A DNA stretch of 64,000 nt, taken from a virus (lineage: Duplodnaviria; Caudoviricetes). Location: IMG/VR virus record IMGVR_UViG_3300021400_000128, positions 64,001 to 128,000 of that record; one strand, written 5' to 3'. This document shows, one piece after another, positions 4,346 through 63,031 of this stretch. The translations under genes were made by a program, and so were the position numbers. Below the pieces are notes generated by a model, which was not told where the DNA came from, made no database searches, and was given only the letters and a program-made list of their open reading frames with translations. Position 1 is the stretch's first letter; each line of letters begins with the position of its first letter.

Positions 4346-5584
4346 CTACTCGGCCATAAATGACCGAGCTTCTTGCTTCATCGCTGCGTCTTGCTGTTGA
4401 AAACGTATTTTCGAACAGTAGAGGGCGCGGGCTCCACAAGCGTTATTGGTTTGGCCAGTTCCTGACCTACCATTATTCAAAAGGAATTGTCTAATTCCTT
4501 CGTTTCTAATATTGACAGCAGCATTGATATCACGGTCATGATGTGTTCGGCAGTTATTACAAACCCATTGACGGATACGTAGATCTTTCACTTCTGGATG
4601 TAATGAGCCGCAAACTGAACAGGTTTGTGAGGATGGGTACCATTTATTGATCCGTATAAGGACTTTTCCCCTGTCTTGTAACTTATAATCTAAAAAGTTC
4701 AGAAACATTCCATAACCATTATCAAGTGTCACTTTTCCGTTACCAAAGCCTTTATTAGACATTGCTTTCATATTCAGATCTTCAACACAGACCATGTCAT
4801 ACTGATTGGCTATCTCAGCAGATTTCTTGTGAAGAAAATCGCTTCTTTGGTTTGCTATATGTCTATGTACTTTTGCAATTTTTAATTTTGTTTTTTTATA
4901 ATTATTGCTTCCTTTCGTTTTATGCCGTAATTTCCTTTGTGCGTGAGTTAGCCGCTTTTGCCCTTTTCGGAAGTATTTCGGTGATCCACAAGTATTTCCA
5001 TTGGAATCAGTATATAAACCATCCGATTTATAATCGAGACCAATTGCATTCAATTCTGGCTCGGTAACAGACCTTTTATCAGAATCATACTCAAACAAAA
5101 CTGAACAGAAATATTTTCCATCATTTGTCATAGAGACGGTTGCAGATTTTAGTTTCCATCCGTCATCAGGATATCTATGAAGAATAGCTTTTACCTTTCC
5201 GATTTTTGGTAATCGTATCTTTTTATTTTCAAAATCAAGGGATACTGTTCCATTTTGATTATTAGTTGTATATGAATCCCGAGATTTCTTTTTTGATTTG
5301 AATTTTGGGCGTCCGGTTCCTTTTGCAGTGAAAAATCGTTTGTACGCATCCTGTAAATTAAGCTGAACATTTGCCAATGCTAATGAATCCACTTCACGAA
5401 GATATGGGTATTCATCTTTATACATAGCAGGGGTTGGTTTTACAATGGATTTATCCTTTTTATAAGCATTTTCCCGTGTTGCAAGCATCAAATTCCAGAT
5501 TTTCCGACAACATCCAAAGGTCTTTGCAAATAAGACTTTCTGTTCATCGTTTGGATATATTTGATATTTGATAGCTCTGTTCAT
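4346..5584 (-). CDS. tnpB: TnpB RNA-guided endonuclease
   Basis: OrfB HTH, RuvC D (IGLDY), E (VEDL), D (DRDINAA) and CxxC..CxxC zinc finger. Confidence 0.95.
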   Translation of the reverse strand: MNRAIKYQIYPNDEQKVLFAKTFGCCRKIWNLMLATRENAYKKDKSIVKPTPAMYKDEYPYLREVDSLALANVQLNLQDAYKRFFTAKGTGRPKFKSKKKSRDSYTTNNQNGTVSLDFENKKIRLPKIGKVKAILHRYPDDGWKLKSATVSMTNDGKYFCSVLFEYDSDKRSVTEPELNAIGLDYKSDGLYTDSNGNTCGSPKYFRKGQKRLTHAQRKLRHKTKGSNNYKKTKLKIAKVHRHIANQRSDFLHKKSAEIANQYDMVCVEDLNMKAMSNKGFGNGKVTLDNGYGMFLNFLDYKLQDRGKVLIRINKWYPSSQTCSVCGSLHPEVKDLRIRQWVCNNCRTHHDRDINAAVNIRNEGIRQFLLNNGRSGTGQTNNACGARALYCSKIRFQQQDAAMKQEARSFMAE

Positions 5585-5994
5585 ATTTGTACGTTGTTCT
5601 GTCTTTCGATATATTTGAGTATATTTTCTTCACTGGTAGAGCCAATTGTCTCCACAAAATAGCTACCATTCCAAAGGTGTCCTTTCCAGAGTTTGTTCTT
5701 TATTTCGGGAAATTCAAGCAATAGATGACGACCAGATATCCCTTTTAACCATCGGACAATATCTGTCACGGATAATTTGGGAGGCGAAGATACAAAACAG
5801 TGGACATGATCCATCTCCCCAACTTTCGCTTCAATGACACTAAATCCTTTTTCGTTTCCTATTTCTGCAAGTAGATCATATAATCTTTCGGAAATATTTT
5901 CATTCAATACTTTTCGACGATATTTTGTACACCAAATAATATGATAGTTGATGTTATAAACACATGTTCGTCCGTGAGTGTATTTGTTTGACAT
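5581..5994 (-). CDS. tnpA: IS200-family Y1 (HUH) transposase
   Basis: YHIIWCTKYRR, DHVH, LKG.S, LW..SYF and YIE.Q motifs. Confidence 0.97.
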   Translation of the reverse strand: MSNKYTHGRTCVYNINYHIIWCTKYRRKVLNENISERLYDLLAEIGNEKGFSVIEAKVGEMDHVHCFVSSPPKLSVTDIVRWLKGISGRHLLLEFPEIKNKLWKGHLWNGSYFVETIGSTSEENILKYIERQNNVQI

Positions 5995-6164
5995 ACATAT
6001 AGTATATCATACTATATGAGATAATTCAAATATAAGCAGGCTCAAAAATAGACTACACATAGTCAACGCTTTCATCTCCCACATGAATGAGGGAGAATTC
6101 CCGCGTCACCCTCAATTAAAAATTTTAGACTTTTCTATATTAAGCGAACATCTTTACATCTTGT

Positions 6165-8688: not shown

Positions 8689-9201
8689 TTATTTTTGATT
8701 GAGATACATCATCATGTTCTGTTGGAGCTTCACATATCTGCTCCGTGCGCTTCCGCTTTGGCATGTCCGGTTCCGTGGAATTGTTCGGTTCGGTTCTTCT
8801 TTGTAATTATCGCGATACAGAGAAAACTGCTCAAAGGTCAGGTCAACCCATTGATCGTTGATCTTGTTGAAATAATGCGTTCCACCACCCTTCAGTGATA
8901 TTCTGTGAATCGATCCACCAAACATATCATTCACTAAGGCAGCGGTGATGGCGCATTGTCCGTAGGTCGGATCGCTTGCTTCCCAATCCTTCTGACAGTC
9001 AGGGTAAGCCGTATTTGCTCTCCAACATTTGCGAAGCACAGCATATAGTTCATTCAGATTTGTGATTCCTGGAAATTGTGGAATTTCCTTGCATTTCAGT
9101 TCGCCGAGTTGTTCACCCTTGTAATGACCTCTGCGATCTTTGGATGTTTCACGAATATACTGCATATCTTCTAATGCTTTTGTTACGTTTGGGTTATTCA
9201 T
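8689..9201 (-). CDS. YunG-like protein
   Basis: CW..T..W..P..GQCAITA...FGG...HYFN...DLT..QF. True start MNNPNV has SD AAAGGAG; the longer ORF reads through the mini-IS. Confidence 0.7.
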   Translation of the reverse strand: MNNPNVTKALEDMQYIRETSKDRRGHYKGEQLGELKCKEIPQFPGITNLNELYAVLRKCWRANTAYPDCQKDWEASDPTYGQCAITAALVNDMFGGSIHRISLKGGGTHYFNKINDQWVDLTFEQFSLYRDNYKEEPNRTIPRNRTCQSGSARSRYVKLQQNMMMYLNQK

Positions 9202-9214
9202 AATACTCTCCTTT

Positions 9215-9358
9215 TTGACACTCCCCATGCCTAAAGGCAGGGGATTCTCTCTCGATGACGGTAACCCGCCAAGCATAAAAGAGCTATCTCCGTGTGCCCC
9301 ACGGTTAGTTCGTCTTTGACCCCATAGCTAAAGCAAGGGGATTGCAGACGGTTTTTTG
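9215..9358 (-). mobile_element. 144-bp non-autonomous IS605 derivative: LE + omegaRNA scaffold + RE, no protein
   Basis: LE hairpin and RE identical to those of 61062-62851; interior matches that element's reRNA; 5' flank is TTGAA. Confidence 0.9.
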
Positions 9359-11040: not shown

Positions 11041-11259
11041 CTAAAAACCGCTTGTAGTCTTTTTTTTATTTTTTATGACATAACCAGGATTATGAAACAA
11101 TTCAGGATTACTTAAAAGTTCATTCATTAGTTTGTCAAGCGTCTCATATGCTTCTTTCACATTTTCTGGTGCATCATTATTCAATTTTCCCGTCTCCTCA
11201 TCATAATAAGGCTTAATAATCTTTAACAATGCTTTTGCTGTTTTCATTTTATCTTCCAT
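11041..11259 (-). CDS. Small partner/immunity-like protein
   Basis: Paralogue of 7575-7775; follows the second MGG peptidase. Confidence 0.7.
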   Translation of the reverse strand: MEDKMKTAKALLKIIKPYYDEETGKLNNDAPENVKEAYETLDKLMNELLSNPELFHNPGYVIKNKKKTTSGF

Positions 11260-11261
11260 TT

Positions 11262-12164
11262 TTATCCTCCATATCCTAATCTGTCAATTTCATCTAATAA
11301 TACCTTGACATATGCCTTTGAAACTTCACTGGCATTGTCTTTATTAGTATATATATCTGCAAATGCTTCCGCAAATGCTTCTTTTGTTGGGCTGCCGCCA
11401 TATGACTTCGCATCACTGGCATACCCCGAGATTTCATGTCGGAAAGATGGTAAGGCTTTTTTATATCCTATTGATTTTTTTGCTTCCTTTTCCAGACGTT
11501 GTAAAGTTTTACTTTTTCTGATATCATCCATCATATTATAAGTATCAAAAAAACCTTTTTTCTTTGCATCTTTCAACATTCTGCCTAATAAGTAATTATG
11601 TATCGCATGACCGAATTCATGTGCAACCACAGATTCAGGTGTCATATTTGGGATATCAAATCCTCTTTCAGCTCCTGAAAACAATTTTGGATCATCTACC
11701 TTTGAAAAATGTACGCCTAACCCAAAGGTTTGACGTGTTTCACCAGTAGCCCCACTGAATGTAGATTTAATTTCTGCGGCAGTTGTACCACCAGGATCAA
11801 CGATGTAATGGAATCCATTTATAGCCCCCTGCATAAAGGGATATCTTTCTTCAAGTTCAGAAATGGTATTCAACGCCCGTTTTATCATTTGTAAATCATG
11901 GTTCTCCGTAAAACCCTTTGCAACATTTGTTTCGCCATATTTTTCAATCAACACAGAACGCAGATCTTCTTTTGTCTGCGCATCATTTATTTTATCCCAA
12001 AAAGACTTTTCTTTTGGCTGCTTTGCGGTTAACCGTTTTTGCCGCTCCACTTCTTTCGCTGCCTGTCTCTGCTGTTCAAGTTCATCGATTTCACTTTGAG
12101 GAGCCCCGTTCTGCAATGCTCTTGCTATCTTTTTTGCTAACCTGTAGCTTGCTGATCCACCCAT
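11262..12164 (-). CDS. MGG-leader protein with zincin-like metallopeptidase domain
   Basis: MGGSASYRLAKKIARA leader; HEFGH and EAFAEAF; paralogue of 7789-8622. Confidence 0.8.
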   Translation of the reverse strand: MGGSASYRLAKKIARALQNGAPQSEIDELEQQRQAAKEVERQKRLTAKQPKEKSFWDKINDAQTKEDLRSVLIEKYGETNVAKGFTENHDLQMIKRALNTISELEERYPFMQGAINGFHYIVDPGGTTAAEIKSTFSGATGETRQTFGLGVHFSKVDDPKLFSGAERGFDIPNMTPESVVAHEFGHAIHNYLLGRMLKDAKKKGFFDTYNMMDDIRKSKTLQRLEKEAKKSIGYKKALPSFRHEISGYASDAKSYGGSPTKEAFAEAFADIYTNKDNASEVSKAYVKVLLDEIDRLGYGG

Positions 12165-12682: not shown

Positions 12683-12974
12683 TTTTGACCTTCCTTTACA
12701 ATTTGCTGGCCTCGTTTTATTGCTTTGACACTCCCCATGCCTAAAGGCAGGGGATTCTTAAGAAGGTTGCTAAGATAGCCTTATTCTTAAAGGGCTTGCC
12801 AATAGCCCGCTATCCAGTCTTTCAAAATTGAAATTCTGTTTACATTTCCGTTACCGCCTTATATCCCCATAGTTGAAGCGAGGGGTTTTACGGCTGTTTT
12901 CTGATAAAATCACCGTACCAGTTTGTTTCGAATTGAAAATCAAAATTCTTCAGCATTTGCTGTCGAAGTGTCAT
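12679..12974 (-). pseudogene. 38-aa ORF split by a mini-IS
   Basis: Removing 12725-12903 restores MTLRQQMLKNFDFQFETNWYGDFIAIKRGQQIVKEGQK*, whose stop overlaps the next ATG. Confidence 0.75.
12725..12903 (-). mobile_element. 179-bp non-autonomous IS605 derivative (PATE-like)
   Basis: LE hairpin CCCC..GGGG after TTTAT; RE GAATCCCCTGCCTTTAGGCATGGGGAGTGTCAA. Confidence 0.9.
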
Positions 12975-33301: not shown

Positions 33302-34593
33302 TTGACACTCCCCATGCCTAAAGGCAGGGGATTCTTGCTTCACCCACCACAGCATGATTTTCATCACGTCTTACACGATGTCCACAAGCGTTGATTCCCG
33401 TGTGTCCCACGGTATTTTCTTTTAAAATTTCCAATCCTTTATTCAGAATGTTGATCGCTGCATTAGCATCACGATTATGATGAGTTCCACATTTTGGACA
33501 GTCCCATTCTCGGATCGATAAATCCTTTACTTCAGGATTTTTATATCCGCATTGGTTACATGTCTGACTGCTTTCATAGAAGCGTGGTATTTTAACTAAT
33601 ATTCCTTTCCTGTCACTCATCTTGTATTGCAGCATTCTGAAAAATTCACTCCAACTTACATCTGCGATTGATCGTGCTAATTTATGATTTTTCATCATTC
33701 CTTTGATGTTCAGATCTTCAACACATACAACTTGATTCTCGTTTGCAAGTGTTGTTGTCACTTTATGAAGGAAATCTGTTCTGATATTAGTCACTTTTTC
33801 GTAAGCAATCGCAACTTTTATTCTCTGCTTTTCTCTGTTGTTGCTCCCCTTTACTTTTTTTGACATTCTTCTTTGTGTTCTTGCAAGTTTTTTTGCGTAT
33901 TTTTTATATGTTTTCGGATTCGGGATACTATTTTCATTACTGTCAACAAGAAAATCTTTGATCCCAACATCTATTCCAATAATGCCTCCGTTATTTGTCA
34001 ATTCAGGTTCATCTGTCTCAACACAAAGCGAAACATAATACTTTCCACTCATCGATTTACTTATTGTTGCATTCAGGATTCGTCCATCGAAGTGTTTCAG
34101 TCCTTTATATCTGACATAACCGATTTTAGGTAGCTTGATTGTATTTGCGACAAGCCTAATTCCGTTACTCTGATTTCTTGTTCTGAAAGATTGTTTTCTT
34201 TTCTTTGAATGGAACTTTGGGAATCCGGCATTCCTTTTGAAGAAATTTTGATAAGCCTTATCTAAATCCTTCAAAGTCTCTTGATATGCCATGCTGTCGG
34301 TCAGGTTTAGCCATTCTTGAGTTCCGTCTTTTTTTAGCTCCGTCAACAACCGCATCGTTTCATACATTGACACTGATTTCTTTTCTTCTTTGTATGACTT
34401 AATCCGAAGATCAAGAAAATGATTATATACATAGCGAACATTTCCAAATGTCTGCTCAATTTGGCTCTTTTGTTCTCTCGTTGGATATAATCTCGCCTTG
34501 TATCCTTTGTTCATACAACACTCACTCGAATAATATTAATATTACCGTCTTTCATCCCCATAGCTAAAGCAAGGGGCTTTTCGGCGATTTTTG
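33302..34593 (-). mobile_element. IS605/IS1341-type element (tnpB only)
   Basis: LE AAAG+CCCCTTGCTTTAGCTATGGGG after ATTAC; RE ends in TCAA at 33302. Confidence 0.9.
33318..34514 (-). CDS. tnpB: TnpB RNA-guided endonuclease
   Basis: IGIDVG, VEDL, NRDANAA and zinc finger. Confidence 0.95.
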   Translation of the reverse strand: MNKGYKARLYPTREQKSQIEQTFGNVRYVYNHFLDLRIKSYKEEKKSVSMYETMRLLTELKKDGTQEWLNLTDSMAYQETLKDLDKAYQNFFKRNAGFPKFHSKKRKQSFRTRNQSNGIRLVANTIKLPKIGYVRYKGLKHFDGRILNATISKSMSGKYYVSLCVETDEPELTNNGGIIGIDVGIKDFLVDSNENSIPNPKTYKKYAKKLARTQRRMSKKVKGSNNREKQRIKVAIAYEKVTNIRTDFLHKVTTTLANENQVVCVEDLNIKGMMKNHKLARSIADVSWSEFFRMLQYKMSDRKGILVKIPRFYESSQTCNQCGYKNPEVKDLSIREWDCPKCGTHHNRDANAAINILNKGLEILKENTVGHTGINACGHRVRRDENHAVVGEARIPCL

Positions 34594-34638
34594 GTAATCG
34601 CCCAACTGTCCGCTCAGTTCCATTTGAAAACGTGTCAT

Positions 34639-34731
34639 TGCCAACCTCCGTTCAAAATTCATTCAACTTACATTTATTATTATATTTATTATTATATATT
34701 TGTCAATGCGTTTACTTATTTTTATTACATT
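34639..34731 (-). promoter_or_regulatory. Repeated early promoter module 5
   Basis: TTGACA (34701-06), N16, TATAAT (34679-84); reads through a 15-codon ORF stub into tnpB. Confidence 0.85.
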
Positions 34732-37525: not shown

Positions 37526-38782
37526 TTAGCTTCGTGGGAGGAACGCCGAATTTCTTTTTTCAACAATGTAACTATTATTAGGTTGTATCAGTTTTAATTT
37601 CTTGTAACTGACTGAACCATTATTTACCTTTGTTCCGTCCAAAGAACGGATGTCAAAATATCCACTATCTCGACGTCCAAATACAATATATGGCTTATCT
37701 TGATACACAACCATATCGAACAACCGAAATCCCCTTACTTCGTGTGGAGCTTGATTTCTCTTTTTTGCCCCACCTTTCAAAAAATTACATTTGTGTATCT
37801 GCCTGTTGTGACAGCGAACTTTTCTGTAGAAAAAGACTTCACCGTTACTCTTCGCTGTAGGATTCCCGCTGATACACCGTGCATCGATGTAATGATCCTT
37901 TGGTAACCCATTCTCAATACGAGTATGTTTTGTGATATACCCATAAGTAAGATTCACGTTAAGATATGTCTGCTTCAGTTTTCCGTAAAATGCCCATCGC
38001 ATGATTCCCATAAAAGCAGCATCTTTGAAACTCATACCGCGTTTAATTCTTTTCGGGAGATCAACTGTTCCGTTATGATATCCTTTATGACAGGTCTCAC
38101 ACAGCGTAATAAGATTGTTCGGAGCATCTCCACCGGTTTTCCTTGATTCAATATGATGCACATTCAGAATCTTATCTTTTGACTTTCCTTTACAGCATTG
38201 ACACTTATGACCATCCCTGTATAAAACATATTCACGCACATTCCAAAATCCTAACTGTTCACCCTGCTGATACTCTGCACCACTGATTTCAGGATTCTTG
38301 ATTTTCTGAATATCAAATGAAGCAACCTCCACCATTATTTTTGAAACGGGTAGTATATTATGGATTCTCCGAATAAATGAAAGATGCGTGTCAACCTTCT
38401 GCTGTACTGAAGGTGCTAACCAGCCGTCTTTCCGCTTGCGGTTATCAAATCTTGCTTTGCGATAACGTAGTTTACGGTTCCGGCGAGAGCTTCTTTGTTC
38501 TCTCCGGGATGAAAGCAATTTCACGATATCGTTTCTTACTTCAACATTTGCTTCAAATAAGACTTTTTCTTTTGTTGTAGTAGAGATACCAATCACCTTT
38601 GATCCGGCATCGACGCCTAAAGTAACCTCCTGCGTATAATTTGTTGTTTCATACGCTAACTGTATTGTGAACGGACATTTCTTGATTACCTTTGCCTTAT
38701 GCGACTTTAGGAGAATACGCACTTTTGCATGGTTCTCTGTGGGCATTAAGGGCTGTCCGTTTGCGCTTATAACATAAACCAT
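37526..38782 (-). CDS. iscB: IscB RNA-guided endonuclease
   Basis: PLMP, RuvC-I LGVDAG, RRxRR bridge helix, RuvC-II VE...FD, HNH (VHHI..NLITLC..CH) and RuvC-III H..DA. Confidence 0.97.
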   Translation of the reverse strand: MVYVISANGQPLMPTENHAKVRILLKSHKAKVIKKCPFTIQLAYETTNYTQEVTLGVDAGSKVIGISTTTKEKVLFEANVEVRNDIVKLLSSRREQRSSRRNRKLRYRKARFDNRKRKDGWLAPSVQQKVDTHLSFIRRIHNILPVSKIMVEVASFDIQKIKNPEISGAEYQQGEQLGFWNVREYVLYRDGHKCQCCKGKSKDKILNVHHIESRKTGGDAPNNLITLCETCHKGYHNGTVDLPKRIKRGMSFKDAAFMGIMRWAFYGKLKQTYLNVNLTYGYITKHTRIENGLPKDHYIDARCISGNPTAKSNGEVFFYRKVRCHNRQIHKCNFLKGGAKKRNQAPHEVRGFRLFDMVVYQDKPYIVFGRRDSGYFDIRSLDGTKVNNGSVSYKKLKLIQPNNSYIVEKRNSAFLPRS

Positions 38783-38799: not shown

Positions 38800-39074
38800 T
38801 CCTAACTCTTTTCGAGTTAATAACTCACTCCGAAGAGCGGTAAGCATACCTTCGCCAATGTTATCCCAAGGTTTTGTATGTCTGCATCACTGTTCCTTCC
38901 TCACAGAACTGTTTAAACACAGACCGTAGTGTTCGGAATTAGGTATTACGTCCCGAAGTACCTATATATTCTCAGGTAACGTAGTGCTCATGGCACTTAG
39001 GCTATTCAATGTGAATTGCTTTTCGGTTTTTGCCATCAGCAATCCCCGAAGCTTTAGCTTCGTGGGTCATTGAA
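38800..39074 (-). ncRNA. IscB omegaRNA (HEARO-like) scaffold
   Basis: TCAAT..ATTGA.TAGCCTAAG..CTACGTT..ATAGGTAC..AACATTGGCGAAG hallmark blocks upstream of iscB. Confidence 0.85.
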
Positions 39075-40653: not shown

Positions 40654-42031
40654 CTGGTTTTCCTTTACTTTAAAATTGCTTTAAATTGGGCATTTTCAGG
40701 CGTTTTTCTTTTATACCCTTATAACTTTACACTTGAACTATAAAACGCTCATATTTTTAATTCTGAGCTTAAATTTAGGCTTCTGTGATATATTTGAGCT
40801 TCCAGGATTGAAAATGGTCTTCTTTGATATCATGCAAGAATCCATCTGAATCTAACAAGGTGATATATTCTTCTTTCATCTTGTCAAAACTGTAACCGTA
40901 CACCAGGAACCAGCGATCATCGTCAACGCCTTTTCCATAAACAGGTTTTCCAACCATTTCCTTCATTTCTTCAAAGGAGCCGATTTTCTTGAGCATTATT
41001 TTCCTTCCTTGTACGCGCCCCAACTGAATTTAACAAATCCATCTTTGAAGGCGATGTGCTTTCCGTATATACCCCATCCGTCTTTGTGATAGTGTGTTGG
41101 TTCTGTGTATCCTGCTGCAAGTGCATCCATTTGGCTGTTGAATACTTTATCAATAGTTACGCCCAAAAAACGTGGAGTTTTGACATAATCACCGACTTTC
41201 ATAATCACCTCTCAATTCCGATTGCATCCATGATTTCGCCAAGAATACCGAGCATCTCTGATGCTCTCTTGTGCTCATATTCCCAATAATGGGAATCATT
41301 CAAATCATCTTTATATGAGCTGTATTTGTCTAATAACCATTGTTTTGTTTTTGCACTGATTTCGGTCATAATTCGATCTCCATTCCGAACACTGCCTTGT
41401 AGCCTTCTTCACTCATTGGATAAACACGACCATCACGATGAAGCATTACAACACCTGGAAGCAATTCACCTTCGATGAAAATATCGCAAGCAAGGGCAAT
41501 GGATTCGACTGCTTTACAATGGTCAAAAGCTCTCATCGCCGTATCAAAATAACGCCAAGCTTTCCAGTTATAACCATTGATCCGGATATCTTTTTGCGCA
41601 ATGCGCTCACAATTCTCAAGAAGTAATTCAAAATTGGTATCGTCCATGTCATTCTCCTTCTGCCGGGTACGAAGCCCCCGGCTTGGCTTTGGAAAAATGG
41701 TTATAATGCAGCAAGATTTTTAGTCAACGAAGCACACGCTTCGGTAACACCGGCACCATCAGCAACCCATTGCCGATATTCAGCAGTCCATCCATAGGCA
41801 TCCAGAATGCCATACAGGATTTTGAGTTGAAGATTCAGCATGGAATCTTCTTCAGTGAAGTCCGCTGACACAAAAGTGTCATATACATAGTCGAAAAATT
41901 CGACCTTGCTCATCTTTTTTCCAAACATCGAAATCTGATTCATGACAACCTCCTAAACAGAAAAGAAAAGATTTGACAACTGACCATGCCCGTCGTTGGG
42001 CATTTTTCAAATTCAGTTGTCAAGGTTCACG

Positions 42032-42469
42032 TCAGGCAGTCACTTTGCGAAAGCTGACCGTCGGATTCCCGATCTTCTTGGCGATCCCGATTTCAGGGAA
42101 TTGCTTTTCCAGCACTTTAAGCGTTTTCCCGTCCCATGTCGTCTTACCGGACACCCAGCACGCCATCAGGGATTCACCCTTGACCGTCGCACCGCATTCA
42201 AGAACATCGTTCTTGATTTCTGCTTCGAGCAGTCCGATCTGTTCGATCAGGTCGGCGTTCTTAGCTTCAAACTGTGCCATCAGTTCGTTATAGACGTTCC
42301 GAAGGTTGTTCAGGACATCCAGCTTTTCTTCTGTTGTTACCTTTGTCGTTACGATTTGACATTCCTCATAATGGGGATTCTCTCTCGACAATGGCAATCC
42401 ATTGAGCATAAAAGAGCTATCTCCGTGTGTCCCACGGTTCGTTTTTGTTACGATTTCGATGTTTTCCAT
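42032..42469 (-). CDS. Early protein carrying an in-frame 33-codon omegaRNA insertion
   Basis: Codons 6-38 are the TnpB reRNA scaffold; the remainder is coiled-coil plus a small C-terminal domain. Confidence 0.75.
   Translation of the reverse strand: MENIEIVTKTNRGTHGDSSFMLNGLPLSRENPHYEECQIVTTKVTTEEKLDVLNNLRNVYNELMAQFEAKNADLIEQIGLLEAEIKNDVLECGATVKGESLMACWVSGKTTWDGKTLKVLEKQFPEIGIAKKIGNPTVSFRKVTA
42356..42454 (-). ncRNA. Immobilised TnpB omegaRNA scaffold
   Basis: About 65 nt nearly identical to 61088-61153. RE hairpin collapsed to CCCCATTATGAGG, tail AATGTCAA kept, no LE hairpin. Confidence 0.85.
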
Positions 42470-42567
42470 TGTTGCCTCCGTTATTCAAAATTCATCATTC
42501 AACTTACATTTATTATTATACGAGTTTTTATATATTTGTCAATGTTTTTAATTATTTTTATTACATC
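42470..42567 (-). promoter_or_regulatory. Repeated early promoter module 7
   Basis: TTGACA (42537-42), N16, TATAAT (42515-20). Confidence 0.85.
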
Positions 42568-42843
42568 TTTTTATTTATCGAAGTTATGACATTCCAGTTG
42601 AAAAATTAACCGGATTATCTCCGGTTAATTCAATTTTCCTGATTTATGCGTTGTATTCAGCGTATTCGTTCATCAAGTCCAGATCGAGAATGGTTTCAAA
42701 CACCCCGCAAAATTTGGTTTTGCATTCATTACCGATACTCGTATCTTCATTGATGATCCAGTTCCTGATAAAATAATCAGCCTTGTTGAAGAGAACGCTT
42801 TTTTCTGCTTCACTCATAGAAATCAGCTCCATTCATTTTGAGA

Positions 42844-43695
42844 TTAGACACCTAACGCCATTTGTGCTGCCGTCATCGGGCTTAAATAGCTCTTATATCG
42901 TCCGAAACGTGTTTCTACCGCCTGGTTCCTGGGTGTCAGTTTGTAATCAGACCCGAATAGGATTTTCTCATTTCTTGCTCTGCCTTTGTTATAGATCCGT
43001 TCAAACGAATCCAGCAGGGATTGTGTATTCATCGTCGACAGATAGGTCGGTGTAGCTCGTTTGATAGCCGAACACAGCTTATTAACCACATCTTCATCGT
43101 AATGCTGCACAACAAACAAGGATGCGGTTTCTTTTACGCTCTTATCACCCCTGAATCCGATTTCCGACATAGCGTCCCAGACTTCATAGACCATCGGGAG
43201 ACGCTTATCTGCGCGATCCTTGTGCTCTTTGGTGTAAATCAGTGTTCCATTCTGCATTGATGCTTTTGTGATGTCATTGGTGCTGATATTTGACGCACGC
43301 AGCACCAATTTATAAGAGGCAGAATATTTCTGCATGATTTCGTAAAGGCGGATGTAATTTTCATTTCCCCGCTCGATGTATGATAAGATGTAATCTGTCA
43401 TCTTCCATTTCATGCTGTCATTCGCGTCTTGAACGTCATCAATTCCGCCTTTGATAACAAGGTAACGAACAGGAATGCCGACTGTCTGTGCTGCCTGAAT
43501 CCGGTGTTGTCCATTGAGCACTTCAAGGTTCTCGTTGACAAATATCGGTCCAAGCCTCCAACCGTTTTTTGTCATATCTGCAACCAGTTCCTTCACACGG
43601 TTCGGGTTTACCTTCCGGTTTCCAACGATCCGCTTGAAGATCCCATAATTGTTAGTCTCATAAACTTCACCAACTTTTACATTCAAATTATCCAT
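42844..43695 (-). CDS. ParB/Srx-like (NGQHR) protein
   Basis: T.NY..F....GNR, PIFVN...VLNGQHR. Confidence 0.75.
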   Translation of the reverse strand: MDNLNVKVGEVYETNNYGIFKRIVGNRKVNPNRVKELVADMTKNGWRLGPIFVNENLEVLNGQHRIQAAQTVGIPVRYLVIKGGIDDVQDANDSMKWKMTDYILSYIERGNENYIRLYEIMQKYSASYKLVLRASNISTNDITKASMQNGTLIYTKEHKDRADKRLPMVYEVWDAMSEIGFRGDKSVKETASLFVVQHYDEDVVNKLCSAIKRATPTYLSTMNTQSLLDSFERIYNKGRARNEKILFGSDYKLTPRNQAVETRFGRYKSYLSPMTAAQMALGV

Positions 43696-45352
43696 TATTC
43701 AAAATCCTTTCATTTTTTTCCGGGTTTATTCCCTCCGGATGGGAAAATTCACCTTATGCTGTTTTGCTGTTTGCTTTGATACTCAACAGCTCTTTTGCCC
43801 ATTGCTCGCATTCTTTGCGGACACCATCGCGGTTCAGACCTTTTTCCCAGGAACAACCATCTGCGGAGTAGATGTTGTAGGTCTTCATCTGCTTGTTGGT
43901 CAGCGGATTCCACCATTTTTCTTCAATTACGGTGATACCGTATTTTTCTTCAAGACCTTTGAATCCGTACATAATATCCTCCTTAAAACATCTCACAATC
44001 TGCAAACGAATCGTCTTGATCCGGTTCTGTATCTTGTTCGTCTTCTTCCGGTATCTCATCGAGCATATCCCAAATATCGCTTATCCTATTGAAGTAATAG
44101 TCATAGCTGATATCACCGTTCATATATTCGTGTTTCAGTTCCGTCAATTCATCAAACCATTTCTGCTTATTGTCCATTATTTCAGCTCCAAGAAGTCAAA
44201 ATCTTTTTTCTCAACAAGACCAAGGATCTCCAAGGCGTTTTTCATTCCAAGGTAATATGACAGTTCACCGTCAAAATCGCTGAATGTACCGCCCTTTTCT
44301 TTGATGTCTCTGACACGCTTCAAACTTTCATCTGCCAGGAAAAGGATTCTTTCCAGTGATTCAGTGTTGACCGTTGTGTTTCCGGTTGTTTCCATTTCCA
44401 GCTCCTTTCCTTTACGCGTTCAGTCCGACACTGTAAGCGTTATTCTGAGCGAAGCGCAGACCCAGGTTATAAACTTTTCGCTGTGCACCGATTGTGCAGG
44501 GCATTTCTGACGTAATCTGACGATCACCGTCATTGATGATGAAGTAATTATCGAAAACATCCGCACTGATGGATTTTTCGCCATCGGTAATCAGGAAATT
44601 CGCCATATAGCGATCAAAATTCTTGTTCGCAATCATCTGAGCATCGGTCATGCTTTTCAGAATTTCCTTTGCGGTTTTGAGCATATCTTCAAATGTCATC
44701 GTGTGCCTCCTCAAAATAACTATCGCTGATTCAAAATGGTTGTTCGTTTTACCATCCGAGCCAGTCTTCAAATGCTCCGGCTGCTTCAATTTCTGCGTAT
44801 TTCGCTTCGATGTATTTTTCATATTCGTTATCAAATTCGTTATTCATTGTTGCCTCCGTGATTCAAATTAGCTCAAAAATGGTTCCCGGTGTTTTGCCCC
44901 ACCGGGTAGGGCTGTCATTCTCAAATGAGCTTTCGCTCCGTGTGAATTAGGCGATGCCCATGTATTCACGATCCCAACCAAGGGAAACAAGCTGCTTCAA
45001 GAGCTCACCGAATTTCCATTCGTATTCCTGAGCTTCTTCACGCCAACCTTCTGCAAGGCTGTTGTGTTCGGCTTCCAAGGTTTCAGCCATTTCATAGCAT
45101 TCGCGGGCAGAGACCTGATAGAAATCAGCGTCCTGGAAAAGTTCGTTTTTGTTGATGGTGATGGTGTTGGTGTTGGTATTCATAAGTGACCTCCGTGATT
45201 CAAAATGTTTGTTGTTTGTTTTCTTAACTATAATTATTTTATCACATGTACGGATACTTGCAATATGATAACATTCAAATTATGACATGACAAATACCAT
45301 GTTTCCGTACTTGTATTAATCATGTATAATTTTCTAAAAGGAATTAAGTGAT

Positions 45353-60071: not shown

Positions 60072-60326
60072 TTATTCTCTCCATTCTGCTAATAACATTG
60101 GTATCGGCATCCACATATCTACGATTTCCTGACTGACAAATCCCCTGAACATTTCATCGGTTGTAGGCGAATCGGTATAAAACAGTTGCTGACTTTTTTC
60201 ATACCATGCCACTTTAACATTGCCGAATTGCGGATACATCCAACCGAAATGTATAATCACCGACTGATGATCTTCCGGGACTCTTTTCTTGATGTCGATC
60301 CATCCGACTTTTTCACTCTGCATCAC
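60072..60326 (-). CDS. DUF551-like protein
   Basis: WI....P...WMP.P; close paralogue of 60802-61053. Confidence 0.6.
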   Translation of the reverse strand: MMQSEKVGWIDIKKRVPEDHQSVIIHFGWMYPQFGNVKVAWYEKSQQLFYTDSPTTDEMFRGFVSQEIVDMWMPIPMLLAEWRE

Positions 60327-60801: not shown

Positions 60802-61053
60802 TCACTCTCGCCACTCCACTAAGAACATCGGTATCGGCATCCAACGCCTGACAAGCTCTTGTGGAACAAATCCTCTGTCTATTTCATCCATTGTCGGCGA
60901 ATCTGTATAAAACAAATGCTGGCTCTTTTCGTACCATGCTACTTTGACATTCTCGAAATTCGGATATACCCACCCGATATGGATAATTATCGCCTGATGA
61001 TTTTCCGGCTGTTTATCTTTGATATCGATCCATCCGACTTGTTCACTACGCAT
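60802..61053 (-). CDS. DUF551-like protein
   Basis: Paralogue of 60072-60326; its 5' end forms the guide of the adjacent reRNA. Confidence 0.6.
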   Translation of the reverse strand: MRSEQVGWIDIKDKQPENHQAIIIHIGWVYPNFENVKVAWYEKSQHLFYTDSPTMDEIDRGFVPQELVRRWMPIPMFLVEWRE

Positions 61054-61061
61054 TTTCACGC

Positions 61062-61153
61062 TTGACACTCCCCATGCCTAAAGGCAGGGGATTCTCTCTC
61101 GACAATGGCAATCCATTGAGCATAAAAGAGCTATCCCCGTGTGTCCCACGGTT
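61062..61153 (-). ncRNA. TnpB reRNA/omegaRNA scaffold
   Basis: CCGTG-GGACA-CACGG stem-loop whose loop pairs with TGTC of the 3' tail; guide follows from 61061. Confidence 0.85.
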
Positions 61154-61163
61154 TTTATCAATG

Positions 61164-62294
61164 CTATTGTGCATATAATAACAACCCTTGTTTTCTGATA
61201 TTGATAGCAGCATTCAAGTCTCTGTTGTGAACTGTTCCGCACTCAGGACATATCCAACTCCTATCACCTAATTTCAATTCAGCATTTACATATCCGCACT
61301 GATTACACGTTTTTGAAGAAGGAAACCACTTGTCTATCGCGATGAGCTTCTTTCCACGCTCAATCAGTTTATAGGACAGAAATGTTCTAAATTGTCCGAA
61401 ACCGTTATCAGTCGTTGCTTTGGCAAGGTGTAAACCCTGTGACATTGCCTTATAGTCAATATCTTCCACGGCAATAATATCATATTGATCCGCAAGTTTG
61501 GTGCTCAACTTGTGCTGCCAATCTTGCCGACAATTGCGTACTTTTTCAAACGCACGAGCAACCTTGATTCTCTGCTTTTCCCAATTTGAGCTTCCTTTTT
61601 GTTTTCTGGATAATCTCCGTTGTTCACGTGCCAATTTTCGTTCCGCTTCACGGTAGAAATGGGGCATATCTGCTTTATTTCCTTCGCTATCCACATAAAA
61701 ATGTGGGGAACTGTAATCAAGCCCGATTGAATTTTCAGTATTCAGTTCACGTTCAGGAATATCAAGCTCATACTCAAACCCGATGGATACAAAATACTTT
61801 CCACTCGGTTCCTGGGACACTGTAGCATTCAGGATTCTTGCTCCTTCCGGTAATTTTCGGCACAGCTTTGTTTTCACTATTCCTAATTTTGGAAGGCGCA
61901 CATTCCCGTTCTCAATCCGCGTAACATTGTCGCATCCGACCGTTTGATAGGATTTTTGATTATCCTTCTTGCGCTTGAATTTCGGGAATCCAGGAGTACC
62001 ACCCTTTTTTACGTTCCTGAAGAAATTCTGATACGCAGTATTCAGGTTACGGAGCGCACATTGCAAGGCGTTTTTATCCGGTTCTTTCAGCCATTCGTAT
62101 TCATTCTTCAAGTCAGTAAGCATCTTGTTCTGCTGAAAAAATGATCTGCTTTCACCGTTTTCTTTATAAGCGGTGATTCTATCAAAAAGGAAGTGATTAT
62201 AAACAAAGCGAACACATCCGAAAGTCTTCTGAATCAGCTCTTCTTGCTGCTTATTTGGATAAATTCTGTATTTGTATGCTTTATTTGAAATCAT
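61164..62294 (-). CDS. tnpB: TnpB RNA-guided endonuclease, CRISPR-associated
   Basis: IGLDY, AVED, NRDLNAA and zinc finger all intact. Confidence 0.95.
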   Translation of the reverse strand: MISNKAYKYRIYPNKQQEELIQKTFGCVRFVYNHFLFDRITAYKENGESRSFFQQNKMLTDLKNEYEWLKEPDKNALQCALRNLNTAYQNFFRNVKKGGTPGFPKFKRKKDNQKSYQTVGCDNVTRIENGNVRLPKLGIVKTKLCRKLPEGARILNATVSQEPSGKYFVSIGFEYELDIPERELNTENSIGLDYSSPHFYVDSEGNKADMPHFYREAERKLAREQRRLSRKQKGSSNWEKQRIKVARAFEKVRNCRQDWQHKLSTKLADQYDIIAVEDIDYKAMSQGLHLAKATTDNGFGQFRTFLSYKLIERGKKLIAIDKWFPSSKTCNQCGYVNAELKLGDRSWICPECGTVHNRDLNAAINIRKQGLLLYAQ

Positions 62295-62310
62295 TTTTCT
62301 TCCTTTTTAC

Positions 62311-62461
62311 GAATTTTGCAGTCGTCTATACCCTCTTTTGGTAGGGGCTATCATCGGTTGGTATATACGTACCTAATTTAACAGGTGTCTATACCTTGGC
62401 TGCTATGTAGTAACCGGGGTTCTTTGGTATATACGTACCTAATTTAACAGGTGTCTATACC
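62311..62461 (-). CRISPR. Mini CRISPR array: two identical 36-nt repeats, one degenerate trailer repeat, two spacers
   Basis: GGTATAGACACCTGTTAAATTAGGTACGTATATACC at 62426-62461 and 62360-62395; 17/22 partial copy at 62311-62332; spacers of 30 and 27 nt. Confidence 0.85.
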
Positions 62462-62462
62462 T

Positions 62463-62560
62463 GGTATATTATCTTGTAAAATAAGGTACGAACTTCTTGC
62501 TTCACCGACCGCTCAGTGCAATCTCCACAAGCGTTATGTTCCCGCATACCCTGCGGTACA
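62463..62560 (-). ncRNA. tracrRNA-like RNA: omegaRNA scaffold + anti-repeat
   Basis: CCGCA-GGGTA-TGCGG, AACGCTTGTGGA and TGAAGCAAGAA blocks as in the reRNAs at 33302 and 4341; 62463-62490 is complementary to repeat nt 1-28 (21/28). Confidence 0.85.
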
Positions 62561-62667
62561 GTTTTAACAGTGTTTCACTGTGTTGCACTTATTATTATAC
62601 TCAATATCCTTGTTTTGTACAGGTATTAGTGTAAAATAGTGTTACACTAATTTGAAAGGCGGTTGCT

Positions 62668-62820
62668 ATGGTTTCCGATAACAATACCCGTGTCATGGTC
62701 ACTATCCCGAAAGAGTTGAAAGAACAGTTGTCTGTCATTGCAGAAAATGAAGGACGCTCCCTTTCTAACCTCATTGTCCAGATTCTAAAAAATTATGTAA
62801 ATGAATCCTTGACCCCATAG
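62668..62820 (+). CDS. Ribbon-helix-helix regulator (50 aa, below the ORF-track cutoff)
   Basis: MVSDNNTRVMVTIPKELKEQLSVIAENEGRSLSNLIVQILKNYVNESLTP; SD GAAAGGCGG. Confidence 0.85.
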   Translation: MVSDNNTRVMVTIPKELKEQLSVIAENEGRSLSNLIVQILKNYVNESLTP

Positions 62821-63031
62821 CTAAAGCAAGGGGATTGCAGACGCTTTCCCATTCAATGTTTTCCTCACGGCATTTGTTACATCCATCTTTTTCATTACAA
62901 TAATTATTTCTCGTGATAAAATAGCATAACGTCGCACCATTACATAACTGTTCTCTCTCAATTTCAGTACAAGTAATTTTCATCTCTAACTCCACATGTA
63001 ACACCGTCGAATGTAGCATTCAGTCAGCTTT

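Follow-up and report, generated by a model that had tools for sequence, protein, structure and literature searches.

The host gene and its insert

On the minus strand of the window, which is here the whole analysed stretch of 64,000 nucleotides (positions 64001-128000 within a phage record of 136,915 bp that has direct terminal repeats), lies a small early gene of a ruminant-gut phage with 99 additional nucleotides behind its fifth codon. Sequencing runs that contain this stretch come from ten studies of 2013-2025 and are gut metagenomes of ruminants and other animals. The locus comprises the following features:

42032..42469, minus strand: host gene with the insert, 145 aa versus 112 aa in relatives (ORF list, homologues and alignment)
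42515..42542, minus strand: predicted sigma-70 promoter, TTGACA-16-TATAAT, matching the consensus at 12/12 positions
42356..42454 (equally 42348-42446), minus strand: in-frame insert of 99 nt, probable remnant of an omegaRNA-only mini IS200/IS605 element
42455..42459, minus strand: TCGAA at the TAM position, one change from the family TTGAA
42447..42454, minus strand: left copy of the 8-nt repeat ATCGTAAC, native gene sequence, equal to guide positions 1-8
42348-42355, minus strand: right copy of the same repeat
42336..42355, minus strand: would-be 20-nt guide ATCGTAACGACAAAGGTAAC, equal to host codons I-V-T-T-K-V-T

With the insert the host protein begins as MENIE, continues as IVTKTNRGTHGDSSFMLNGLPLSRENPHYEECQ and proceeds as IVTTKV.... 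In its AlphaFold model residues 1-44 have pLDDT below 55 and are followed by a long helix and a small alpha/beta part; the insert region is thus predicted to be a disordered or poorly ordered N-terminal tail, and in the protein alignment the N-terminal region around it is also variable among homologues. Pfam gave no domain match for the host protein, Foldseek found no PDB fold for it below E 0.1, and megablast of positions 41000-44000 against phage GenBank returned zero matches. The consensus promoter is located 46 nt upstream of the start codon and serves both the gene and the embedded scaffold. The insert itself, described in the first-pass annotation as a stop-free stretch of 99 bp after codon 5 of an early gene, is confirmed by reading of the gene and by its insert-less relatives: it contains 33 codons and no stop, a single one of its three frames being open, and an in-frame 99-mer would be open by chance with a probability of about 0.04-0.07.

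Since the 8-nt direct repeat ATCGTAAC flanks the insert on both sides, its two placements are equivalent. The 5' junction reads TCGAA followed by ATCGTAAC, i.e. by guide positions 1-8, just as it was first annotated (a near-TAM and a copy of the guide seed), and the native site is an imperfect tandem ATCGAA-ATCGTAA. Insertion of IS200/IS605 elements (peel-and-paste) makes no target duplication. Rfam has no family for the insert, the single match within the window being the HEARO RNA of IscB (38840-39074). A group I intron or IStron was rejected as too small a candidate, with no Rfam match and an RNA contig that keeps the insert; an assembly artefact was rejected because independent assemblies of two studies contain it.

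Resident TnpB and its scaffold family

The phage encodes three TnpBs, one IscB and one TnpA in total, and its genome is rich in OMEGA-type elements, every one of them on the minus strand.

61164..62294, minus strand: cognate TnpB, 376 aa (Pfam), with about 50% identity to the TnpB of ISDra2 (8bf8 in the PDB, E 5e-85)
61062..61153, minus strand: omegaRNA scaffold and right end of the full element, with complete stem 4 CCCCUGCC-UUUA-GGCAUGGGG
62813-62833, minus strand: left-end hairpin of the full element (within 62813..62856)
62852-62856, minus strand: TAM TTGAA of the full element, its left flank GAAAACATTGAA resembling that of the insert
9215..9358, minus strand: intact mini-element that encodes no protein, belongs to the same scaffold family, has both hairpins and stands after TTGAA
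33302-34576, minus strand: second TnpB element
4346-5584, minus strand: TnpB, 412 aa, of an IS605 within 4346-6100
5581-5994, minus strand: TnpA (Y1 transposase, 137 aa) of the same IS605
37526-38782, minus strand: IscB (RRXRR and HNH, 418 aa), with a full-length HEARO omegaRNA upstream (38840-39074, 130.7 bits)

In the TnpB at 61164-62294 the residues D, E and D align to D191, E278 and D361 of ISDra2, which leaves the RuvC triad intact. The segment 61087-61153 lies between the stop codon of this gene and the right end of its element. The scaffold of the phage is about 90 nt long and has the same layout as that of ISDra2: stem 1 is CCGUG/CACGG, stem 2 CUCUUUU/GAGAGAG and stem 3 CAAUGG/CCAUUG, the loop GACA pairs with UGUC at -6..-3 in a pseudoknot, and stem 4, CCCCUGCC-UUUA-GGCA(U)GGGG, occupies -29..-9. 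Across six members of the family, standard pairs make up 97.7% of pair cells; in stem 3 three pairs are compensatory, with both sides changed, and stem 4 varies through G-U pairs. Stem 4 is at the same time the right-end subterminal hairpin, to which a Y1 transposase would bind. An omegaRNA that accompanies an 87%-identical TnpB (L013:232-365, minus strand) keeps stem 4 via G-U pairs only (CCCC replaced by UCUU opposite GGGR), which argues for selection of the hairpin at the RNA level, not solely as a transposase site in DNA.

Three verified insertions of the scaffold family are flanked by TTGAA, and the mini-element at 9215-9358 is likely the kind of ancestor from which the insert came. With its guide (9195-9358, minus strand) this mini-element covers the ribosome-binding site and the start of a YunG-like gene, and an internal ATG in its scaffold is in frame with that gene (ORF 8689-9276). 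In the metagenomic copy L017:1000-1217 stem 4 is degenerate (CCAC…GAGG) and the left-end hairpin not recognisable; the copy adjoins an apparent tRNA 3' end and is the closest match to the 3' end of the insert. Two further mini-elements, at 12725-12885 (minus strand) of the window and 11194-11354 (minus strand) of the genome, differ in their internal scaffold but agree with both tnpB elements in the 29 nt of right-end hairpin and end (CCCCTGCCTTTAGGCATGGGGAGTGTCAA), so that one right end appears to serve several scaffolds.

The full element contains three direct repeats upstream of tnpB (62312-62479; about 21-56 nt long, spaced by 63-66 nt) and a divergent ribbon-helix-helix ORF of about 44 aa on the plus strand (~62690-62825), which fits the Arc repressor of IS605 elements (bioRxiv 10.64898/2026.09.24.754181). 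Its guide covers the start of the second gene in a tandem pair of DUF551-like paralogues (60080-60325 and 60802-61053, minus strand). The second TnpB element (33302-34700, minus strand) lies within a small early ORF and directly follows another copy of this early promoter with its 5'UTR (…AAATGTAAGTTGAATGA…); such promoter regions contain TTGAA and are recurrent insertion sites (also L018). It is doubtful that the IS605 at 4346-6100 can move the scaffold family studied here, because its end hairpins differ.

The 12-mer GAAAACAT[CT]GAA occurs only twice in the 137-kb genome, at 42455-42466 and 62852-62863 (both minus strand), and both sites are left junctions, one of the insert and one of the full TnpB element. 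This shared left flank amounts to 7-8 nt of identity beyond the TAM requirement; to our knowledge, no TnpA or TnpB step reads the left flank beyond the TAM. Outside the record, the exact TnpB is also present on one 20-50-kb metagenome contig. The genome collection contained no scaffold copy and a single TnpB match, 43% identical, from a Psychrobacter MAG. In scans of IMG/VR neither the hairpin-less 3' end, nor the full element's empty site, nor relatives of the ORF to its left gave a hit, and empty alleles were likewise absent.

Parts of the scaffold kept and lost

The insert retains most of this scaffold, arranged as follows:

42373..42439, minus strand: scaffold core, 67 nt, 66/67 identical to 61087-61153; no match in shuffles
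42433-42437 with 42423-42427, minus strand: stem 1
42428-42431, minus strand: pseudoknot strand GACA (loop)
42410-42416 with 42380-42386, minus strand: stem 2
42399-42404 with 42389-42394, minus strand: stem 3
42356..42372, minus strand: what is left of stem 4, plus the transposon end, ATTATGAGGAATGTCAA; upper stem deleted together with the UUUA loop
42358-42361, minus strand: pseudoknot strand TGTC, retained

The near-identity of the core with the resident guide scaffold at 61062 had been pointed out in the first-pass annotation and is borne out by the 66 identical positions of 67. Stem 1 (CCGUG/CACGG) and the pseudoknot GACA:UGUC are present, at positions where every family member pairs, stems 2 and 3 are identical to those of the full copy, and the terminal TCAA is retained within the family end motif (..TGTCAA), which reads GGAATGTCAA at 42356-42365. 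The earlier statement that the pseudoknot pair and the terminal CAA survive was therefore correct, both being found in the insert, while the companion statement that both hairpins are gone holds in part. The left-end hairpin CCCCTTGCTTTAGCTATGGGG, copies of which are found at 9320, 34556 and 62813, is absent from the insert, but the right-end hairpin is only trimmed, since its lower 3-4 pairs persist. The form with the bulged T is missing, as nine alignment columns (TGCC-TTTA-G...) are deleted. They correspond to one arm of the upper stem and the loop, and the remainder, CCCC-AUUAU-GAGG, can form at most 3-4 pairs. The predicted contribution of stem 4 drops from about -15 to about -2 kcal/mol in the insert, which lacks the complete guide-adjacent stem 4 (WED contact) of the ISDra2-type omegaRNA. 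In the literature we found no report of such an upper stem 4 deletion. In MFE folding the scaffold of the insert alone adopts stems 1-3, and together with the guide it has an alternative fold of equal energy. Because the TnpA-type hairpins are lost, the insert is immobile, in accordance with the initial proposal.

The 3' end of the insert, ATTATGAGGAATGTCAA, is nearer to metagenomic L017 (GGTATGAGGAATGTCAA) than to the resident copy, and its 3' stretch TATGAGGAATGTCAA is the same as in L017. The 5' end, CAAAAA-CGAAC, equals the left-end start and junction of the mini-element at 9215, which also shares CACGGAG with the insert. Judged by these sequence matches, a TnpB guide scaffold gave rise to the insert, which does not represent a copy of the resident element at 61062-62856.

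Filled and empty alleles

The insert is absent from all 22 homologous protein clusters (102-125 aa), none of which has residues 6-38. Its own 90% cluster comprises two 145-aa forms and seven 112-aa forms that lack the insert and are otherwise 93-98% identical; in the two long forms (P0023 and P0030) the protein sequence of the insert is identical. A search with the insert peptide (residues 1-42) in the protein collection found no other cluster, cluster representatives hiding variants within clusters. At the DNA level the empty allele reads ATGGAAAACATCGAA|ATCGTAAC..., the filled allele having 99 nt more, and a contig from an independent 2024 run (X9) omits exactly these 99 nt (42347 to 42447). 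The insert is identical in five independent contigs, with no variation inside it, and is contained in contigs from a 2013 run and from a 2025 run. It occurs on at least two upstream flank haplotypes and with different downstream modules, beside empty alleles.

The two allelic states were found together: assemblies of sample SAMN02144231 contain filled (L019, L022) and empty (L004, L029, L030) alleles, i.e. both coexist in one population. The insert is fixed in a sub-lineage which coexists with empty alleles. Uninserted alleles among sister phages, as presumed in the first-pass annotation, do exist in the same samples, and one of them (L025) matches the guide at 20/20 positions. Filled alleles have a near-identical tract from about -50 to +290, and it is common to the empty alleles of the same group; a co-conversion tract centred on the insert could not be told apart from such a generally conserved tract.

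One metatranscriptome contig (42328-42480) covers the insert with no differences and unspliced, and it comes from an animal whose DNA run carries the filled allele. The insert is therefore present in the RNA library, transcribed with the mRNA. The end of this contig at 42480 was rejected as an RNA 5' end, since DNA contigs, too, break at this point in the repeated promoter; RNA ends cannot be read from contigs, and parts of the host gene that have no RNA cover are evidence neither way.

Candidate guide, its targets and the TAM

The would-be guide ATCGTAACGACAAAGGTAAC has a sole match in the genome, itself. In the empty allele L025 the 20/20 match is preceded by TCGAA; other empty alleles have 1-2 guide mismatches, at positions 7, 9, 10 and 15. 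All close empty alleles have TCGAA, and so do P0002 and P0005, which are more distant; comparison of the alleles therefore points to TCGAA as the ancestral state of the MENIE group. TTGAA occurs only in the distant P0004 group (L006-8), whose target agrees with the guide for no more than 7 nt. The first-pass annotation had expected homologues without the insert to show TTGAA, and this did not come true: every guide-matching allele reads TCGAA. The latter differs from the TAM by one change, as was stated. Sparing of its own locus by the guide was anticipated correctly, because the guide copy follows GTCAA, the 5' junction shares just the 8-nt seed and no other match exists.

In ISDra2 the T at -4 is read through its methyl group by F77 and T123. 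In the TnpB at 61164-62294 the residues responsible for T-4 and T-5 (F77, T123 and N124 in ISDra2) are different, while those for G-3 and A-2, K76 and Q80, are kept. Tolerance of changes at -4 and -5 is documented for another TnpB (PMC11043419). Since the T-4-reading residues differ, K76 and Q80 are kept and such tolerance is on record, the use of TCGAA as a TAM is neither excluded nor supported. Nucleotide diversity in the target (4/20 variable sites versus 28/304) is not significantly raised (p=0.12). Among empty alleles, residues 8-10, which belong to the target, show a cluster of amino-acid replacements (Poisson p ~0.005, calculated post hoc and for a variable N-terminus). An escape signature in the target was rejected, with p=0.12 for nucleotides and an amino-acid clustering that is post hoc and falls in a variable tail.

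Origin and possible function of the insert

The observation of an in-frame scaffold insert is confirmed, and the functional interpretation first given to it is partly supported. We consider the insert to be an immobilised, in-frame, frame-restored remnant of a guide-RNA-only (PATE-like) mini-transposon from the family of ISDra2-type TnpB, with a probability of about 0.58; most likely it persists as something harmless and not excisable. An element of this family would have entered an early gene with strong transcription at ATCGAA-ATCGTAA, among the first codons, where a complete mini-element would cut the protein short. In the surviving version the region of the left-end hairpin and the tip of the right-end one would have disappeared and a 7-8-nt duplication would have been added, and these losses together with the duplication would bring the sole stop-free frame of the scaffold into register with the gene, within its N-terminal tail. 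Without hairpins no Y1 transposase could excise it, and the insert would then be inherited as a part of the gene, and the carrier would be protected from every nuclease whose guide addresses the empty site. We infer this order of events, and also that persistence can be explained with no TnpB function.

Direct reading of the sequences is in line with such a course. A complete mini-element of the L018 or 9215 kind placed after TCGAA meets a stop codon; with intact stem 4 in the open scaffold frame the gene downstream is out of frame and TAA appears within ATCGTAA, and the 8-nt deletion in stem 4 restores the frame of the host. On the left side, loss of the hairpin region plus an extra ATCGTAA(C) puts the start of the gene in the same open frame. 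The deletions fall in two palindromes, the most deletion-prone parts, and frame rescue together with palindrome loss is enough to explain the anatomy of the insert. Survivorship selection suffices, because the insert has just one open frame and an in-frame 99-mer would be open by chance as often as given above. Thus, in the notion of a domesticated immobile guide the immobility stands, but domestication is not needed, since deletions and duplication restore the host frame. The remnant reading is also favoured by the scaffold homology (66/67) with ends as in other members, by the lack of the insert in every relative, by TCGAA instead of the family TAM beside every matching empty allele, and by the nature of the deleted part, which is a TnpB contact in the closest solved homologue.

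Several facts speak against a remnant. The decay is strikingly selective, as stems 1-3, the pseudoknot, the lower stem 4 and TCAA survive with 1 substitution in 67 nt; the promoter is perfect (12/12), the genome holds an intact cognate TnpB, an empty allele matching at 20/20 (L025) circulates, the same insert is found on at least two flank backgrounds in studies of 2013 and 2025, and replacements among empty alleles cluster at residues 8-10 (post hoc p ~0.005). One can imagine, as a clearly less probable reading, that the resident TnpB processes the 5' part of the early mRNA and uses the insert as a trans-acting guide to cut the empty allele of sister phages at TCGAA+ATCGTAACGAC.... Cutting may exclude the sister, or the insert and flanking markers may be copied by recombination (TnpA-independent "non-restorative homing"); hairpin loss may make the guide-only cassette non-excisable, and the own locus may be safe with its target preceded by GTCAA. 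For such an activity the insert keeps stem 1 with the pseudoknot, stems 2-3 (contacts of ISDra2 TnpB) and the end motif, and the scaffold alone folds accordingly; the cognate TnpB with its D-E-D triad is 19 kb away, the gene has a consensus promoter and an unspliced metatranscriptome contig (42328-42480), assemblies of one animal sample contain both filled and empty alleles, and the remaining empty alleles deviate from the guide by no more than 1-2 mismatches. The residues reading T-4/T-5 differ, with K76 and Q80 kept and another TnpB tolerant at -4 and -5, and the concept has an experimental precedent on plasmids, as cited in a review (PMC13565253). On the other hand, no matching allele has the family TAM TTGAA, and in ISDra2 the WED domain contacts the upper stem 4, which is deleted here. 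The insert is invariant, hence no signal of purifying selection is measurable; target nucleotide diversity is not significantly raised (p=0.12) in an N-terminus that varies anyway, the low-diversity tract around the insert is common to empty alleles, and the upstream end of the RNA contig is a DNA-contig break, contigs giving no RNA ends. Besides, processing into a guide would destroy the mRNA. As a processed transcript is not translatable, the two functions compete, and the "dual function" proposed for this RNA would be a trade-off.

Still less probable is an action in cis, in which translation would be throttled or timed by a stable structure of the scaffold or by TnpB attached to it 8 codons behind the start, or in which the 33 residues would give the host protein a new property; even taken jointly, these two versions seem improbable to us. 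The structured 67-nt core directly behind the start codon and the identity of the insert protein sequence in P0023 and P0030 agree with them, as does the known processing by TnpB of its own transcript (PMC10278001). The insert region is, however, predicted to be disordered, and the peptide is found in no other protein cluster and in a single lineage. The 8-nt duplication and the 12-nt left-flank identity also speak against the remnant, not being explained by peel-and-paste followed by simple decay. A further reading is a copying origin: the omegaRNA (scaffold and first 8 guide nt) would have been copied into a break in the target or, in a less exotic version, templated-insertion repair would have involved ATCGAA-C and ATCGTAA-C, which are near-repeats. 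In exact order the product consists of TAM, guide nt 1-8, scaffold and guide, which would explain the 8-nt duplication that peel-and-paste does not yield, and the native site is an imperfect tandem repeat. An RNA copy would, however, retain stem 4, TnpB cuts 15-21 nt from the TAM and not at 8, and the 5' end of the insert resembles a left-end start (CAAAAA); both versions together appear to us very improbable. For the remnant of a mini-transposon, which we prefer, the imperfect tandem ATCGAA-ATCGTAA may have favoured a templated slip behind the duplication.

Relation to known systems

OmegaRNA-only mini-elements and TnpB homing are already known. What is unusual here is a guide scaffold translated as a part of a protein, the loss of transposase-binding parts with most nuclease-binding parts kept, and the co-circulation in ruminant-gut phages of filled alleles and perfectly matching empty ones. 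It is a tentative idea that the phage has fixed a hairpin-less, non-excisable guide with which its own TnpB, acting in trans, cuts and converts or excludes sisters having the uninterrupted allele. If the guide were live, the TnpA-binding upper stem 4 would be dispensable for TnpB and TCGAA would serve as a TAM. Use of the scaffold by TnpB would make the locus a natural case of RNA-guided phage-phage competition or homing without a transposase, and a natural experiment on the limits of omegaRNA trimming. If TnpB does not use it, the locus is a clean case of a gene surviving a guide-RNA transposon via frame-restoring deletions, with an allele immune to re-targeting.

Rickettsia palindromic elements, which Ogata et al. 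reportedly described in 2000, are selfish DNA lying in frame in protein genes. They resemble the insert in being short non-autonomous repeats tolerated in frame at a permissive site, and they have many copies in many genes with the palindrome kept. The insert, unlike them, is one copy in one gene, its palindromes are removed and it originates from a guide RNA.

Four stems (1-4) make up the omegaRNA of ISDra2, together with a pseudoknot that joins -5..-3 to the loop of stem 1; the hairpin next to the guide is stem 4, which bears a UUUA tetraloop at -20..-17 and touches the WED domain (PMC10097598). The phage system is similar to the ISDra2 TnpB-omegaRNA complex (PDB 8bf8/8exa/8h1j; PMC10097598) in a TnpB of about 50% identity, the layout of stems 1-4, the UUUA tetraloop and the TTGAx TAM. 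It differs in having a scaffold of about 90 nt wholly downstream of the tnpB stop codon, an insert without upper stem 4 and loop, and other residues at the TnpB positions reading TAM -4, -5 and -1.

TnpA-independent spread by cutting of the orthologous empty site (non-restorative homing) has been discussed on the basis of plasmid data and proposed for phages (PMC13565253). With it, and with phage marker exclusion by homing endonucleases, the present case would share a nuclease that cuts the insert-less co-infecting allele and an insertion that protects its carrier (PMC13565253). Unlike these systems, the insertion would carry the guide alone, with the nuclease 19 kb away.

Closest to the insert are the PATE-like omegaRNA-only mini IS200/IS605 elements of Geobacillus stearothermophilus (Meers et al., bioRxiv 10.1101/2023.03.14.532601). 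Both are protein-less derivatives of a TnpB element that keep the guide scaffold and would need TnpB in trans, and the insert has the homology to the ends or scaffold of a TnpB-bearing element (66/67) expected of a PATE-like element. PATEs have both subterminal hairpins, stand after a TAM without duplication and are mobile. The insert, in contrast, has lost the hairpins, is flanked by TCGAA and not TTGAA, has the 8-nt direct repeat ATCGTAAC and is translated within a protein. Since hairpins, canonical TAM and stem 4 are missing and a duplication is present, it is best described as a derivative of PATEs and omegaRNAs rather than as a member of either.
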